From assembly GCA_034530875.2 (NCBI GenBank), contig JAVRCJ020000012.1:128001-192000 (forward strand): a stretch of DNA of 64,000 bases. Reading direction: 5' to 3'. The notes under the pieces are model-generated. The model made no database searches, was not told the DNA's origin, and saw nothing but the letters and a program-made list of their open reading frames with translations. The translations under genes were made by a program, and so were the position numbers. This DNA is from Nostoc sp. DedSLP01 (GTDB taxonomy: Bacteria > Cyanobacteriota > Cyanobacteriia > Cyanobacteriales > Nostocaceae). The stretch's first letter is position 1. Each line of letters begins with the position of its first letter. Below are positions 144 through 6,314 of this stretch, piece after piece.

Positions 144-1052
144 ATGCCGTCACCTGATTCCTCTGCTTCAAATGTAGCAACTACTGCTCTACAAGGTATT
201 CCATTCTCGTCTTTGATTGGGGCACCGTTAAACGCAGCTATTGAAGCCCAAGCTAAGGCAGCTAAATCAACAGTAGATTTTATCAACGCTGTTGGTTTAA
301 CCGGGCCGGAACATGACCGTCGTCCGATTCAAGTTGAGTTTCTGTACTATGCCAATGGCAGAGAAACCAAACTCGTAGTTCCTTTGCTGACGATTGTCCC
401 AATTCCTTACCTAGCCATCGATGAATTAGATATCCGCTTTAAAGCAAACATTAAAGCTGAAGCATCAACATATCAAGAGGATAATTCTTCAACTGAAGAT
501 AGCTCGAAAAAAGAAATTGGTGGAGGCGTAGGTTGGGGGCCTTGGAGGGCAAAAGCTAACTTTAACGCTAATTATTCTAGTAAAAAAGATTCTAAGGCAA
601 CCCAGCAATCGAAGTACTCTGTTGAATACACTATGGATGTTCACGTTCATGCAGGGCAAGAAGATATGCCTGCTGGACTGGCGAAAGTTCTCGGTATTTT
701 GGAACAGAGTATCGCACCAACACAGGCATATACGACTATTCACTTCACAAAAGATCAAATTAAAATCGATGTCAAGAACAATAAAAATTACAAATTGATA
801 GGTACAGCTTATGATGACCAAGGCCGTGTACTAAAAGATACAGAGGTCAAGCTATTAAAGCCGCAATTACAAGCAGGGTATGGGGAAATTTCAGATCCGG
901 CTCCCGTCAAAACTGATGAAAATGGTGAATTCGTATTGTCGTTTGACTATACAAAACCTTCAGCACTACCTACTCAACCTGCGGAACCAGTAAACTTAGA
1001 GGTTAGTGCTGGTCATGCTAAGAAAACTATCAAGGCCTTAATTTCTGAGTGA
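144..1052 (+). CDS. DUF2589-family protein with a C-terminal Ig-like (Big_1/invasin-like) domain
   Basis: N-terminal 'IPFSSLIGAPLNAAIEAQAKAAKSTVDFINAVG', 'VPLLTIVPIPYLAID' and 'MDVHVHAGQEDMPAGLAKVLGIL' match the DUF2589 pattern. The last ~110 aa ('GTAYDDQGRVLKDTEV...VKTDENGEF') look like a bacterial Ig-like fold. Confidence 0.8.
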   Translation: MPSPDSSASNVATTALQGIPFSSLIGAPLNAAIEAQAKAAKSTVDFINAVGLTGPEHDRRPIQVEFLYYANGRETKLVVPLLTIVPIPYLAIDELDIRFKANIKAEASTYQEDNSSTEDSSKKEIGGGVGWGPWRAKANFNANYSSKKDSKATQQSKYSVEYTMDVHVHAGQEDMPAGLAKVLGILEQSIAPTQAYTTIHFTKDQIKIDVKNNKNYKLIGTAYDDQGRVLKDTEVKLLKPQLQAGYGEISDPAPVKTDENGEFVLSFDYTKPSALPTQPAEPVNLEVSAGHAKKTIKALISE

Positions 1053-1433
1053 GATTGAATAACTTGCAACTTAAGGCATTGCAGGGATGGGTGATGCTGG
1101 TAAATCCTAAACATTGCTCCTTTTCACCCTAGACTAAAAGGATATGGGGATGGAAAACCATAGTTATTTCATCCCCACGATGAGCAATCCCTACAAGCCA
1201 AATAACAAGATAAGTAGCAATATATTTAACTATTCAATCTCACTCGATAAGTAGAAAGCTGCTTATATATTTGGCTTTTTATCCAGCCATTGTTTTAGGC
1301 TTGTAATCGATTTCAACAAGTAAGTTTCAATCTTCAATACGTTTGTATATCAATACAAAAAATTACTAATTCTATCTATGATTAGTGAGACAAACAATAA
1401 TTACAGGTTTCAAAAAATTGGAGATGTTAATAA

Positions 1434-2369
1434 ATGCTACTAAATCAACTTGTTTCTGCAATTCTTAATGATTTAACTAGGGCGCAAGACTTGGCAAATG
1501 AATATTCTAGCCAACTGAGTCGAAAGTACAACAAGTACCAATCTGAGAAAGATAATTTATTAGATAATTATCAAGTTCCATCAGGAATATTGCATGAAAT
1601 TGAACTCGATTTAAAGTTTGCGATCGAAACATTAAGTCAAAATAAGCTAACATTTGATTTAGATAATATAGGAACATACGATAACTGTGAGAGATTAGCT
1701 AAAGAGATAATCACCGAAGCCAAAACAGAAATCAAAGAGCTTATTAATCATATCGGAGTACCTCAAAGCTCTTCAGAGACTACTGTATCTCTATCTAGCC
1801 TGCCTACATTAACATCTAGAGAGCAATCACAATCATCAGACCCTCAAGACGAACGGCAACAGGCGATTAAATTTTGGCACGGCTTAAAAACTCAACTTGA
1901 AGAAAAAGAATATATTCAATTTTATATTACAAAGCTAACAGAATTTATTTTCCATGAAGGAAAAAACGAATTTTCACGAAGTAAGAAGTGGATAAGTGAA
2001 ACGGATCTTAAAGATATTATCTATGAAGCTCTTTATGAATTAGTAATAGATAATGATGATTTTAGCTATCTTCTTAAAACAACAAAAGAAGCTTTTAACA
2101 AAACAGATGAAGAGATAGAACAATGGAATATTCATTTGGCAACTAAATTTCATGAAATAGCAAAAAAATATAGTACAAGTCCAGCTAGTAAATCATTATT
2201 AGTTCAATTATCCGGAATTCCAAATACAGAAATTATTGTTGCCCCTAGTGTTTTGAAAGATATTCCAATTGAGATGATTTCAACACTTAAAATTAAGGCC
2301 GGATTGCAGAGCTATCGATGGATAATAGGCGAAGGTGGGACACAAAATCTACAGAAAGTAAAAGATTAA
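1434..2369 (+). CDS. Hypothetical protein, probable divergent DUF2589-like subunit with a large helical insert
   Basis: 311-aa ORF preceded by GGAG. The N-terminal helix 'LNQLVSAILNDLTRAQDLANEYS' and 'YQVPSGILHEIELDLKFAI' parallel the helix + VP + beta-strand layout of its neighbours. Confidence 0.6.
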   Translation: MLLNQLVSAILNDLTRAQDLANEYSSQLSRKYNKYQSEKDNLLDNYQVPSGILHEIELDLKFAIETLSQNKLTFDLDNIGTYDNCERLAKEIITEAKTEIKELINHIGVPQSSSETTVSLSSLPTLTSREQSQSSDPQDERQQAIKFWHGLKTQLEEKEYIQFYITKLTEFIFHEGKNEFSRSKKWISETDLKDIIYEALYELVIDNDDFSYLLKTTKEAFNKTDEEIEQWNIHLATKFHEIAKKYSTSPASKSLLVQLSGIPNTEIIVAPSVLKDIPIEMISTLKIKAGLQSYRWIIGEGGTQNLQKVKD

Positions 2370-2491
2370 AAATAGGGAAAGCTATCTAAAGATACTTTCG
2401 TATATTTCTTTTAATGGAGTTTGCAAAAATCATTTAGAGAAATATACAGAAATAGTGAGAGTTTTATTTATTAGAAAAAAGACAGGAGATT

Positions 2492-3148
2492 ATGCCACTA
2501 GAAGAAGATAAAGTTATTAGTTTCCAAAAATTGCTTGCTGAACCTCTCATTGCGACTATGCACGCAGATTTTGAAGCTGGCATCCAGTTTGTAGAGTTTT
2601 TCCAAAAATATGGGCTAGAAGAGGTGGATGATAATACCGAAGAAGAAGACACACAAGGGAATACCCAAAAAAAACTAAGCTTTAAAATGGTGACATTTTG
2701 CTATCGCCAAGGAGACCAAAAATACAGTGTACAAGTACCGCTACTATCACTAATTCCACTACCACTACTACAGATTGATACTGCTGAGTTTGAGTTTAAC
2801 ATTCGGATATTTACTGAAGTTGCTAACCCAAATCAGCCATCTTACAACCCTGAAAAAAGTGGAACGAATGACAAAAGTAGTCAAAGTGAATATGGCAAAT
2901 ATGAAGGTATGAAGGCAAGGTTAGCCCCTACAACAGTTAAGGGGGAAGATGGCAAACCAATACAATCAGTCGATTCAAACATGAAGGTGACTGTGAAAAT
3001 GAAGCAAGCGGATTTACCAGTAGGGATGATCCGATTAATGAGGGTATTTGAAAATAGTACCAACATTATCCCGGACAATAAGCCAATAAAAAAACAAGGT
3101 CAGATAAAAGACAGCGAAAGAGAGGAAAAAGTGGAAACAGCCACATAA
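2492..3148 (+). CDS. DUF2589-family protein (second paralogue)
   Basis: AGGAG RBS; motifs 'FQKLLAEPLIATMHAD...FVEFFQKYG', 'VQVPLLSLIPLPLLQIDTAEFEFNI', 'MKVTVKMKQADLPVGMIRLM'. Confidence 0.8.
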   Translation: MPLEEDKVISFQKLLAEPLIATMHADFEAGIQFVEFFQKYGLEEVDDNTEEEDTQGNTQKKLSFKMVTFCYRQGDQKYSVQVPLLSLIPLPLLQIDTAEFEFNIRIFTEVANPNQPSYNPEKSGTNDKSSQSEYGKYEGMKARLAPTTVKGEDGKPIQSVDSNMKVTVKMKQADLPVGMIRLMRVFENSTNIIPDNKPIKKQGQIKDSEREEKVETAT

Positions 3149-3207
3149 AAAGATAAATACATCTCTGTCGAATTAGAACCCAATAAAAAATAAAGGAAAA
3201 AAAGAAA

Positions 3208-3456
3208 ATGAGAAATAGAGAAGTTAAGCAAGGAAATCAAGGACAACAACGCACCCCAGGAATGCCATGTCCAGAGTGCGGCTTTCAAATTGAAATGTCG
3301 ATATATAGTTTACTGACTCAGGCTGAGTTCAAGTGTCCGGGATGCTTGTTGACATTAAGTATGGATAGGGAAGTATCGAGACCAGCGTTAGAACTCCTGC
3401 AAAAGGTAAACACTCAGATGGAGACTATGGATAAGCACAAGAGGTTTGAGAGGTAG
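3208..3456 (+). CDS. Small Zn-ribbon protein (CxxC...CxxC)
   Basis: CPEC and CPGC pairs followed by a C-terminal helix; co-directional with the DUF2589 genes. Confidence 0.75.
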   Translation: MRNREVKQGNQGQQRTPGMPCPECGFQIEMSIYSLLTQAEFKCPGCLLTLSMDREVSRPALELLQKVNTQMETMDKHKRFER

Positions 3457-3590
3457 CGCCGAGCAAATCATCAGACTCAGGGTAAAAAAGAATTAGCCTC
3501 AAAGGAAGTGATGTGTAGGATTACTCAAACAAATGTATTAAATTTCCGGGTGACGAGAACAGGTAAAGAGAATAAAAGGAGAAAAAACGT

Positions 3591-4169
3591 ATGTATATCA
3601 AAACGACAAAGATGTCAGCAGCAGAAGAAAAATTTGAGAAATTCAGGTACGAACTTTTAATTCAGAAGGAAGACGAACCGTATAGTGAGTTAGGTTATAT
3701 ATTGCTCTATCGAGGCTGTAACAGTGATGCTCAATATGAGGGAATAATCAATGAAAGCACGGCGGGAGGTATGAAAAAATCGCAAGAAGTGAGTAACAAA
3801 AACGTTGAGGAACTGAAGTGTAAGTATGGAGATCAAAAATACAGCCGACCATCGACAGAACAAGCCAAAAGGTATGTGGCAGGTAACTTTGGTGCAGAAG
3901 CTGTGCCAGCTCAAATACCGGGAATGCTACATAAGGATGCGCTAAAATTTTGTGGAGATATAGTAGAGTACTCATGGGACAAAAAAACAGCGCAAAGTTT
4001 TGGACTCAGAGGTGGACTAGTTTGTGTGAAGGTTCACATAAGTCATTTAAAGTGGGGATCTGAGGCGGAATGTGGGATGGTGATGTATAGTGACGTAAAA
4101 GTGGAAGTACATCTGTCTGAGTGCCTCAAGCGTGAGAAACTCAGCAAAAGCCTAGGCATATCAAGCTGA
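3591..4169 (+). CDS. Hypothetical protein with ADP-ribosyltransferase-like (R-S-E) motif arrangement
   Basis: AAGGAG RBS; 'LLYRG', 'VEYSWDKKTAQSFG' and 'GSEAECG' occur in the order typical of R-S-E ARTs. Recalled similarity to DUF4765-type domains is unverified. Confidence 0.55.
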   Translation: MYIKTTKMSAAEEKFEKFRYELLIQKEDEPYSELGYILLYRGCNSDAQYEGIINESTAGGMKKSQEVSNKNVEELKCKYGDQKYSRPSTEQAKRYVAGNFGAEAVPAQIPGMLHKDALKFCGDIVEYSWDKKTAQSFGLRGGLVCVKVHISHLKWGSEAECGMVMYSDVKVEVHLSECLKREKLSKSLGISS

Positions 4170-4300
4170 GAAATGGGCTCCACAAAAAGCTCGACTTTCT
4201 TTAGTAAAATCCCCAACTCCGACGCTAAAAACCAATACCCCAGAAAATTAAAGTCCTGTGATATACACACAATAAAGGTGTTATCCGGATGCTTTTCCAC
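4160..4300 (-). pseudogene. Reverse transcriptase C-terminal fragment (degenerate)
   Basis: Translation VEKHPDNTFIVCISQDFNFLGYWF...VELFVEPISQL resembles the RT motif 'KHPDKTFIGRISRGFDFLGY'. No YxDD core or N-terminal RT region is present. Confidence 0.65.
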
Positions 4301-4731: not shown

Positions 4732-6015
4732 GTGAGCTTACAAACTCTAGTTGAACAAACCGCCATCTCCCCAGATTCAGGGTCTCTAACATCTAGTCCT
4801 TTTGATACAGATAGCTTTAATCAAGCTGTGATGTCTACTTATGGGCGCTTTCCCTTAGCGCTAGAACGGGGTGCTGGGTGTCGCGTTTGGGATACACAGG
4901 GGCGCGAATATTTGGATTTTGTGGCAGGAATTGCCACTTGCACTTTAGGACATGCCCACCCAGCGATGGTGGAAGCGGTGACGCGGCAAATTCAAAAGCT
5001 GCACCATGTCTCTAATTTGTACTACATTCCCGAACAAGGTGAATTGGCAAAATGGATAATTGACCATTCCTGTGCCGATCGCGTATTTTTCTGCAACTCT
5101 GGAGCTGAAGCTAACGAAGCAGCAATTAAATTAGCCCGAAAATATGCCCACACAGTATTAGACATTGAAAAACCAATTATTTTAACCGCCAATGCCAGTT
5201 TCCACGGCCGGACTTTGGCGACGATTACCGCTACGGGACAACCGAAGTATCAAAAGCACTTCGATCCTTTGATGCCTGGGTTCCACTACGTAAATTACAA
5301 CGATATTAACTCCGTAGAAGTCGCCATTAGCGAGTTAGATGAAGGCGATTATCGCGTAGCAGCGATTTTGATTGAGCCTTTGCAAGGAGAAGGCGGCGTG
5401 CGTCCGGGAGACGTTGCTTATTTCAAAAAGCTACGGGAGATTTGCGACGAAACCGGGATTTTGCTGATTTTTGATGAAGTGCAAGTCGGTATGGGTCGCA
5501 GCGGTCACTTTTGGGGTTACGAACATCTCGGCGTAGAACCGGATATTTTCACCAGCGCTAAAGGCTTGGGTGGCGGTATCCCCATCGGTGCGATGATGAG
5601 CAAAAAATTCTGTGACGTTTTTCAACCAGGAGAACATGCGAGTACTTTTGGTGGCAATCCTTTTGCCTGTGGCGTAGCGCTGAGTGTTTGCCAAACATTA
5701 GAGCGAGAAAATATCTTGCAGAATGTCCAAGACAGAGGCGAACAGTTACGAAGTGGATTAAAAGCGATCGCTGCGAAATATCCCCATCACATCAGTGAAG
5801 TCCGGGGTTGGGGTTTAATTAACGGTTTGGAATTGCGGTCTGAAATTGCCCTCACCGCAGCTGATGTCGTTAATGCTGCTATAAATGAGGGTTTACTGCT
5901 GGTACCAGCCGGGCCAAAAGTTATCCGCTTTGTACCACCGTTGATTGTCACAGAAGCCGAAGTCAACACTGCTTTAGAGGTTCTGGACAAAGCACTTGCG
6001 ATCGCCACAAAATAG
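4732..6015 (+). CDS. argD: Acetylornithine aminotransferase
   Basis: Class III PLP aminotransferase motifs (FCNSGAEANEAAIKLAR, FHGRT, FDEVQVGMGRSG, SAKGLGGG, HASTFGGNP); GGAGGAG RBS before GTG. Confidence 0.95.
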   Translation: MSLQTLVEQTAISPDSGSLTSSPFDTDSFNQAVMSTYGRFPLALERGAGCRVWDTQGREYLDFVAGIATCTLGHAHPAMVEAVTRQIQKLHHVSNLYYIPEQGELAKWIIDHSCADRVFFCNSGAEANEAAIKLARKYAHTVLDIEKPIILTANASFHGRTLATITATGQPKYQKHFDPLMPGFHYVNYNDINSVEVAISELDEGDYRVAAILIEPLQGEGGVRPGDVAYFKKLREICDETGILLIFDEVQVGMGRSGHFWGYEHLGVEPDIFTSAKGLGGGIPIGAMMSKKFCDVFQPGEHASTFGGNPFACGVALSVCQTLERENILQNVQDRGEQLRSGLKAIAAKYPHHISEVRGWGLINGLELRSEIALTAADVVNAAINEGLLLVPAGPKVIRFVPPLIVTEAEVNTALEVLDKALAIATK

Positions 6016-6075
6016 GCGAGCTATATAATCTAATGCTTCTTACTTTGATACAACACATTAGCTGCTGTTGTGTTT

Positions 6076-6118
6076 GTCAACTACCTACACCTACTCCAAT
6101 AGGAGAGGTGTAGGCTTC
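6076..6118. repeat. Hairpin resembling an IS200/IS605-type element end
   Basis: gtcaacta-cctacacct-actcc-aata-ggag-aggtgtagg-cttc: a long stem flanked by GTCAACTACC...GGCTTC. Confidence 0.4.
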
Positions 6119-6155
6119 TAGTTTTATCGCAGTCATGGCTAACAACTTGAAGAAA

Positions 6156-6314
6156 AATTCAGAAGTCAGAATTAATTAGTGGGGGATTCAGAGGAACCAC
6201 TAATTTTTGCACCTAATTTTTAATTTGCTAGGGGTGCAAAAACGCCGTTTATTCATCCACCAGTCGTACAAAATACCCAACTAACTGAATTCTGAATCCT
6301 GACTTCTGAATTCT
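6156..6314. repeat. MITE-like element with heptamer-based inverted termini
   Basis: aattcagaagtcagaatt ... aattctgaatcctgacttctgaatt inverted ends, with an internal hairpin tttgcacc/ggtgcaaa. Confidence 0.5.

Follow-up and report, generated by a model that had tools for sequence, protein, structure and literature searches.

Toxins of the aerolysin/ETX-MTX2 type and the B components of binary toxins are beta-pore-forming toxins whose stems are rich in serine and threonine (S/T), and an amphipathic hairpin with S/T-rich flanks is a mark of such stems. Pepco proteins (Trypco1, PF19493; Trypco2, PF19631) form 9-10-mer beta-barrels (10.1101/2025.11.14.688446), and in the Type 10 secretion system (T10SS) of Yersinia entomophaga leaderless toxins are released by lysis of a subpopulation (PMC10847048). 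Here we describe a locus in a 64,000-nucleotide stretch of Nostoc sp. DedSLP01 (contig JAVRCJ020000012.1, positions 128,001 to 192,000; hereafter the window), in which the first four of five open reading frames (ORFs), encoding proteins A to D, constitute a conserved, undescribed four-gene system that is rare yet widespread, with a patchy distribution. Judged by its sequence, A, which belongs to the DUF2589 family, is a credible pore subunit. The features of the locus are as follows:

144-1052, + strand: ORF1 (A), 302 aa; DUF2589 domain, candidate pore subunit (Pfam E 3.7e-27)
201-710, + strand: DUF2589 domain of A (Pfam)
492-578, + strand: amphipathic beta-hairpin of A, residues 117-145 (column profile, 132 sequences)
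720-1049, + strand: immunoglobulin (Ig)-like tail of A (Big_1 E 0.0032, below cut-off); variable or absent across the family
1434-2369, + strand: ORF2 (B), 311 aa; probable divergent DUF2589-like paralogue, no Pfam match
2492-3148, + strand: ORF3 (C), 218 aa; DUF2589 paralogue (Pfam E 8.5e-15)
3208-3456, + strand: ORF4 (D), 82 aa; CxxC-CxxC zinc ribbon with a C-terminal helix
3591-4169, + strand: ORF5 (E), 192 aa; singleton, DUF4765/ADP-ribosyltransferase (ART)-like lead (Pfam E 0.038)
4174-4193, + strand: weak terminator-like hairpin directly 3' of ORF5 (terminator scan)

The five ORFs at window positions 144-4169 all lie on the + strand and are genuine coding frames by a sequence check; their co-directional arrangement and the ORF1 peptide quoted in a preliminary description of this DNA are present as given there. 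Loci were collected from GTDB genomes, metagenomes and viral contigs in a search for proteins resembling A, which is thus present by construction, and the 112 loci with A were reduced to 77 with at least 4 kb downstream and then to 39 below 90% identity, this window counted in. The viral loci L121-L132 (L numbers are our own locus handles) were excluded from every count, and the neighbour counts given below include kin that are not independent and have no formal background rate. Among the 39 non-redundant loci D is found in 38, C in 36 and B in 34, with B, C and D together in 32/39. Gene order is A-B-C-D everywhere, B being absent from some loci, and Bacteroidota-type contigs hold extra paralogues, up to ten genes. 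The co-occurrence check proposed at the outset thus came out positive for ORF1-4, which are linked across the 39 loci, but not for ORF5, which is no conserved member. D is the partner most tightly linked to A, and its CxxC..CxxC cysteines, already noted in the preliminary description, are all four present in 83/83 proteins (redundant copies included).

Named records come from cyanobacteria, Bacteroidota, Proteobacteria, Spirochaetes and Deltaproteobacteria, and DUF2589-related genes are reported for Archaeoglobus in one paper (PMC3949148). We found 1705 homologues of A, and the DUF2589 family comprises ~1,700 clusters at 50% identity. Carriers amount to 3/401 cyanobacteria and 7/389 genomes of the source's family, Nostocaceae (both counts include this genome), and to 11/391 genomes of a proteobacterial sample (seed genome included). 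Viral relatives are slighter: L122, L127, L128 and L130 have only a short motif in common with A, their phage ORFs of 150-160 aa (at ~5760-6250) carrying the A-type proline motif twice with the rest of the domain absent, and L121 is a 60-aa fragment.

A scores 96 bits against DUF2589 (PF11655) at a cut-off of 23. Its AlphaFold2 (AF2) monomer model (pLDDT 71, pTM 0.56) runs from helix 21-51 through a small hairpin, a proline motif, strand 95-107, a low-confidence stretch and strand 158-170 to a final helix. In the column profile of 132 sequences, hydrophobic residues take turns with polar ones over positions 119-144, which have a Gly/aromatic tip at their centre and S/T-rich tracts on both sides. 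The two hairpin strands exceed the 95th percentile of their own shuffles for alternation in 81/131 and 103/130 sequences, and over the whole loop alternation lies above shuffles in 62/132 A sequences vs 11/54 C sequences. A conserved amphipathic hairpin of transmembrane length was found in A alone among A, B and C: in the alignment, the loop of C at this position is polar and variable, not membrane-type, and B has at the place of the hairpin a helical insert that in relatives is missing or replaced by a crystallin-like domain. The earlier idea of a pore co-assembled from three paralogues is backed by the hairpin of ORF1 but finds no counterpart in ORF2 and ORF3, and since only ORF1 has the hairpin, it is unlikely that the three subunits contribute in equal measure to one barrel. 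The Ig-like tail claimed for ORF1 has its Big_1 match (E 0.0032), albeit one that stays below the cut-off; across the family a Big_1 domain occurs in 23/132 members. A crude scan showed no hydrophobic N-terminus in ORF1-5, in agreement with the preliminary description, which saw no obvious signal peptide, and none was seen in 123 copies of A.

Of the three DUF2589 paralogues first proposed, ORF1 and ORF3 pass Pfam (C with 55.9 bits at the same cut-off of 23) and ORF2 fails, B giving no match to DUF2589 at E 1. By hhalign, C matches A at 99.8%, whereas B matches A at 8.0% (E 0.0043, 63 columns) and C at 1.1%; a short natural B reached 58.6% against A, but reversed C reached 42%. The PF11655 model itself misses B and does not tell hairpin-bearing A and C apart. 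The AF2 model of B (pLDDT 83) has helix 3-36, a proline, strand 55-68, the helical insert and strands 264-268 and 282-290, and so has a layout in common with that of A: a long N-terminal helix, a proline, a strand, an insert and two strands. The N-terminal helix, proline turn and strands said to be shared are therefore seen in the models of A and B, and B is probably a third DUF2589-like paralogue, although the profiles support this weakly.

From the observed gene linkage, A-only hairpin, leaderless subunits and neighbours we infer an oligomer, a pore, roles for B, C and D, a direction of attack and, for ORF5, a part as cargo. Our tentative preference is for an antagonism cassette that works through a beta-pore and whose cargo can be exchanged; that A forms a membrane barrel under one reading or another is, all such readings summed, likely. 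In the preferred reading A would oligomerise and hairpin 117-145 would enter the target membrane to build a beta-barrel, with the S/T-rich flanks as its stem, and the Ig tail would attach to a ligand on a surface. B and C, which lack the hairpin and would keep the assembly core, might together with D either restrain A inside the producing cell or nucleate its oligomer, and adjoining enzymes (wall hydrolases, phospholipases, here the ART-like ORF5) would be swappable cargo acting through or together with the pore. Since signal peptides are absent, the proteins would probably be set free when some cells of the population lyse. The conserved linkage and order, patchy spread, conservation of the hairpin, varied hydrolases and ORF5's putative ART-like domain, a type known from toxins, all speak for antagonism, and attack on other cells is preferred because of the Ig tails, the effector- and immunity-like neighbours and a cassette that is intact here with no hydrolase.

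Expanded loci bring a different explanation into play. Up to ten paralogues per locus with varied tails and inserts, as on the Bacteroidota-type contigs, would also suit a polymer or scaffold that is no pore (a filament, shell or R-body accessory) with paralogues that present differing domains, and one Vibrio aquimaris pair sits among RebB genes. We nevertheless regard such a scaffold as quite improbable: the bilayer-length amphipathic hairpin is kept by A alone, RebB occurs in 0/10 DUF2589-positive proteobacterial genomes and 0/5 further ones (and in 1/5 plasmid-collection records), and the Vibrio pair is opposite in strand to the reb genes. RebB was not found in this genome with a profile that finds 18 in the Vibrio record, and the three RebB genomes over cut-off are not among the DUF2589 hits of the proteobacterial sample. 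The Vibrio locus itself (L194 1700-10005, NZ_CP045351.1), with its DUF2589 pair on the strand opposite to the surrounding RebB genes, also holds an eCIS-core gene, an AAA ATPase, two PatG-domain genes and a DUF3380-like gene. A lead equating the DUF2589 pair with HP2.1/HP2.2 of PMC3583457 was rejected as a general R-body link, this one Vibrio case being all that it covers.

Cassette composition varies in other ways as well. DUF6734 domains end, or are fused to, expanded Bacteroidota cassettes (L018 14225-15079, L019 14177-15064, L029 15084-15926, L016 13287-15125). Proteobacterial A/C pairs lacking the zinc ribbon are accompanied by a small unnamed family of 90-125 aa, similar by eye (L228 8317-8583, L230 6186-6539, L231 7434-7712, L191 7893-8168, L193 7894-8178, L194 7610-7990). 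A second cassette type in the source's family (L187 2741-5674) comprises a C-like protein, A, a short B and an NlpC/P60-like protein with an Ig tail (motif by eye).

The commonest partner of the family, which the preliminary description does not mention, is a wall hydrolase, present within ~4.5 kb in 14/39 loci (10 DUF3380, 2 lysozyme-M15, 1 GH19-like assigned by BLAST cluster and 1 M23); this tally, compiled manually from the Pfam and BLAST results, covered flanks of 50 bases to 8 kb with small genes unscanned, and an M15 gene lying 3.8 kb away from L071, a locus with A only, was left uncounted. A separate draw gave a wall hydrolase within ~3.5 kb in 7/10 proteobacterial loci; these hydrolases represent five families, and one lies on the opposite strand. 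The types beside cassettes (GH19, GH24, GH25, GH108, DUF3380, M15 and amidase) are endolysin-type, and 0/14 tested had a hydrophobic N-terminus. That unrelated hydrolase families recur is hard to ascribe to one inheritance. A search with PF11860 matched neither this genome nor 14 controls, giving weak background only.

Such neighbours would also suit a substitute for a holin, in which A would form a barrel in the producer's inner membrane under the control of B, C and D and a leaderless endolysin would reach the wall, with lysis or T10SS-like release as the outcome. The endolysin-type, leaderless neighbours are in keeping with this account, as are stand-alone LytTR genes near 12/39 loci, Mor near one and the existence of viral homologues; Pfam scans of the flanks also contained no holin family, although genes below 70-100 aa, the size range of holins, lay mostly outside those scans. 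We take it as the main rival to the preferred reading but judge it unlikely, because a hydrolase is absent here and at the closest relatives and Ig- and crystallin-like appendages better suit an outside target.

Other neighbours are closer to what antagonism would involve. Tle1, lipase_3, patatin, GDPD-like and SUKH genes lie nearby, each in single loci, deaminase-like ORFs stand next to two cassettes (Pfam E 0.03 and 7.6e-13), and small genes around Bacteroidota-type cassettes have a hydrophobic N-terminus in 7/18 cases, as expected of periplasmic immunity proteins. Two more ORFs adjoining cassettes have by eye a Ser/Thr-Gly-Cys motif recalling deamidases, with no Pfam match; the deaminase- and deamidase-like ORFs are at L042 8721-9242, L039 4099-4587, L093 8686-9282 and L050 10239-10757. 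Between D and a muramidase there is also an unnamed, fast-evolving family of 140-190 aa, with 10 members clustered and some signal-like N-termini (L092 9581-10087, L047 9581-10057, L073 9371-9796, L117 9564-9980, L118 8977-9411); these are possibly immunity proteins.

In the Nostoc locus the gene after D is ORF5, which the preliminary description took for an ART-like cargo effector. Pfam places it nearest DUF4765 at E 0.038 (12.4 bits, sub-threshold against a cut-off of 27), and the ESM Atlas leads to the same family (feature score 0.92, 152/256 shared; structure TM 0.50), so that an ART-like, DUF4765-type protein is a lead, not proof. R41, E126 and E158-x-E160 presumably occupy ART motif contexts, having been placed by eye against the ART pattern. 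DUF4765 is described as ART-like; Arg and Glu take the catalytic positions in it, but NAD binding was undetected in CNFY (PMC7883292). Searches of the loci, of a set of 5.8 billion proteins (similar lengths only) and of 400 cyanobacteria gave no relative of ORF5, it had no match among PDB sequences, and a PF15962 search of the genome found no match anywhere. By eye, ART-like motifs are also present in the slot ORFs L189 5235-6053 (- strand) and L005 11602-12267, for which Pfam and BLAST gave no support; ORF5 shows no BLAST similarity to the Arg-motif ORF of L189.

The slot after D is variable, close relatives having unrelated genes there. That ORF5 came to lie behind the cassette as an orphan with no relation to it, and that the Nostocales copy may be decaying, is an explanation independent of the other readings, and its probability falls only a little short of even. 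It accords with the missing relatives of ORF5 and with the ordinary Uma2 gene that fills the slot in L008 and L035, and the decay part with the loss of A in a same-genus genome through a deletion fusing the sigma and B genes. Against it, ORF5 is on the same strand, follows the cassette with no terminator called between ORF4 and ORF5, resembles the cassette in composition (purine content 0.63, rich like ORF2-4, with the 99th percentile of genome ORFs at 0.576) and is set off by a 134-bp spacer of the same length as in L004 (17/500 shuffles score as high); against decay, the four core ORFs are intact here. Cargo or passenger is thus a near-even choice for this variable slot, and the effector claim stands only in that form, ORF5 being no conserved member of the cassette. 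The same-genus deletion (L184 6908-8131, - strand) took out A and left the sigma gene joined in frame with the last part of B; that locus still has C and D, with a reverse-transcriptase-like ORF downstream.

Several observations weigh against the antagonism cassette that we prefer. Residues 109-155 of A are modelled with no confident structure (pLDDT <50 at 109-131 and 138-155), leaving the hairpin unmodelled. No hydrolase was seen in the flanks examined for 25/39 loci, none is adjacent here or in the closest relatives L004, L005, L008 and L035, and eight hydrolase queries had no match in this genome. Where they occur, endolysin-type hydrolase neighbours suit self-lysis equally well, and the Bacteroidota-type loci are kin rather than independent cases. 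Neither export machinery nor an immunity gene for ORF5 was seen, and the DUF4765 domain of CNFY showed no NAD binding (PMC7883292).

The preliminary description allowed for more components upstream, of which an extracytoplasmic function (ECF)-type sigma factor gene (L001 13450-14421), the next gene upstream, ending ~720 bases before ORF1, is the sole candidate; neither a further copy of A, B or C elsewhere in the genome nor a DUF2589, B or C paralogue upstream was found. L005, where a tetratricopeptide repeat (TPR) gene stands between, and L184 likewise have an ECF sigma homologue upstream; the sigma factor is a candidate regulator. Downstream of the locus, the sequence reads as an aminotransferase gene. 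Terminator-like sites number 7 vs 4.2 +/- 2.0 in shuffles, a weak signal, and a promoter scan of the locus stayed at chance level. The A-B spacer is single copy in the genome, its conservation extends to L004 only and an Rfam search of it gave no match; inside it, at window positions 1146-1177, is a short inverted repeat.

Fold searches with A and B matched no solved fold. The Foldseek comparison that had been proposed yielded no PDB match for the core of A at E 0.001 and none for B; VIA gave a best Z of 3.4 for A (whose model has the hairpin at pLDDT <50) and of 6.6 for B, the latter confined to the helical insert. A BFVD structure search brought up two viral proteins, both unnamed (E 6e-7 and 1e-3), PDB sequence searches gave empty or trivial matches, and the ESM Atlas, with DUF2589 set aside, gave a best score of 0.76 for A. 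Prediction of an A2C2 complex reached ipSAE 0.15 and 0.01 vs a mark of 0.32, in a run without controls. NCBIfam and PHROGs returned nothing useful. In the searched literature, which took in other names of the family and left most subscription journals outside, no function of DUF2589 was found, consistent with the preliminary description; there were two passing mentions, and the comparison literature also comprised PMC11402942, PMC3949148, PMC3583457, PMC13430693 and PMC13689365.

The defence role once suggested for the locus found no support in PADLOC, which gave no match under E 0.03, and this bears on the remaining alternative, a Pepco-like suicide pore against phages, with a latent A barrel, a trigger sensed via D or B and ORF5 as a second effector. 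A similar amphipathic helix with barrel strands, and the Trypco2 pattern by eye, recommend it; no cognate protease lies beside the cassette, save CHAT and C39 genes on the other strand in 1/39 loci, and the hydrolase neighbours would be left unexplained. We hold it the least probable of the readings considered. By hhalign the cassette proteins match Trypco1/2 at 0.2-5.8%, to be read beside the positive control of Trypco1 vs Trypco2, which also reached only 0.19%. One Trypco1 gene of this genome (L156, G000:C1:345875-346219) is on another contig, unlinked to the cassette.

Gut Bacteroides, cyanobacteria and proteobacteria carry DUF2589, as do an archaeon and viral contigs; the searched literature gives the family no function, and no solved structure matched its fold. 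Should A be a pore, this would be a new membrane-breaching system, an inter-bacterial weapon or a holin-free route for endolysins. A broader claim, which we hold doubtful, is that DUF2589 cassettes at large might be undescribed leaderless beta-pore devices of bacteria, archaea and phages, forming a channel for swappable enzymes, for toxin delivery or for holin-free export; as part of that same doubtful claim, the channel would consist of a hairpin-bearing subunit, non-inserting paralogues and the zinc ribbon. The preliminary description is thus partly confirmed in what it observed and partly supported in how it interpreted it.

As far as sequence comparison can tell, the cassette appears assignable to neither Pepco, T10SS nor any known pore-toxin family; what is new is the gene system, which is undescribed, and a function for it is inferred here. 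T10SS and phage-derived lysis cassettes resemble it in that, at relatives, a leaderless wall hydrolase stands beside leaderless toxin-like genes; they differ in that DUF2589 is no described part of them, no holin or spanin family appeared in the scans and this locus has no hydrolase. The best match of ORF5, DUF4765, is domain D4 of CNF and is found in EspN, and ORF5 has by eye Arg and Glu positions like R599/E639 of CNFY; unlike CNF it is a stand-alone protein of 192 aa, below the Pfam cut-off and with no translocation or deamidase domain, and any activity is putative. Pepco proteins are, like A, small and leaderless, with an amphipathic helix and barrel strands, the Trypco2 strand pattern resembling by eye those of both A and B; Pepco is encoded by a single gene (117 aa) adjoining that of a protease, whereas the cassette has 2-10 paralogues, a zinc ribbon and Ig tails, with no Pepco-type cognate protease at this locus. 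To beta-pore toxins A is likened by its alternating hairpin, S/T-rich flanks and Ig-like binding tail, and it is set apart from them by searches that gave no sequence or fold match, by the lack of a signal peptide and by the company that it keeps, namely non-inserting paralogues and a zinc ribbon.

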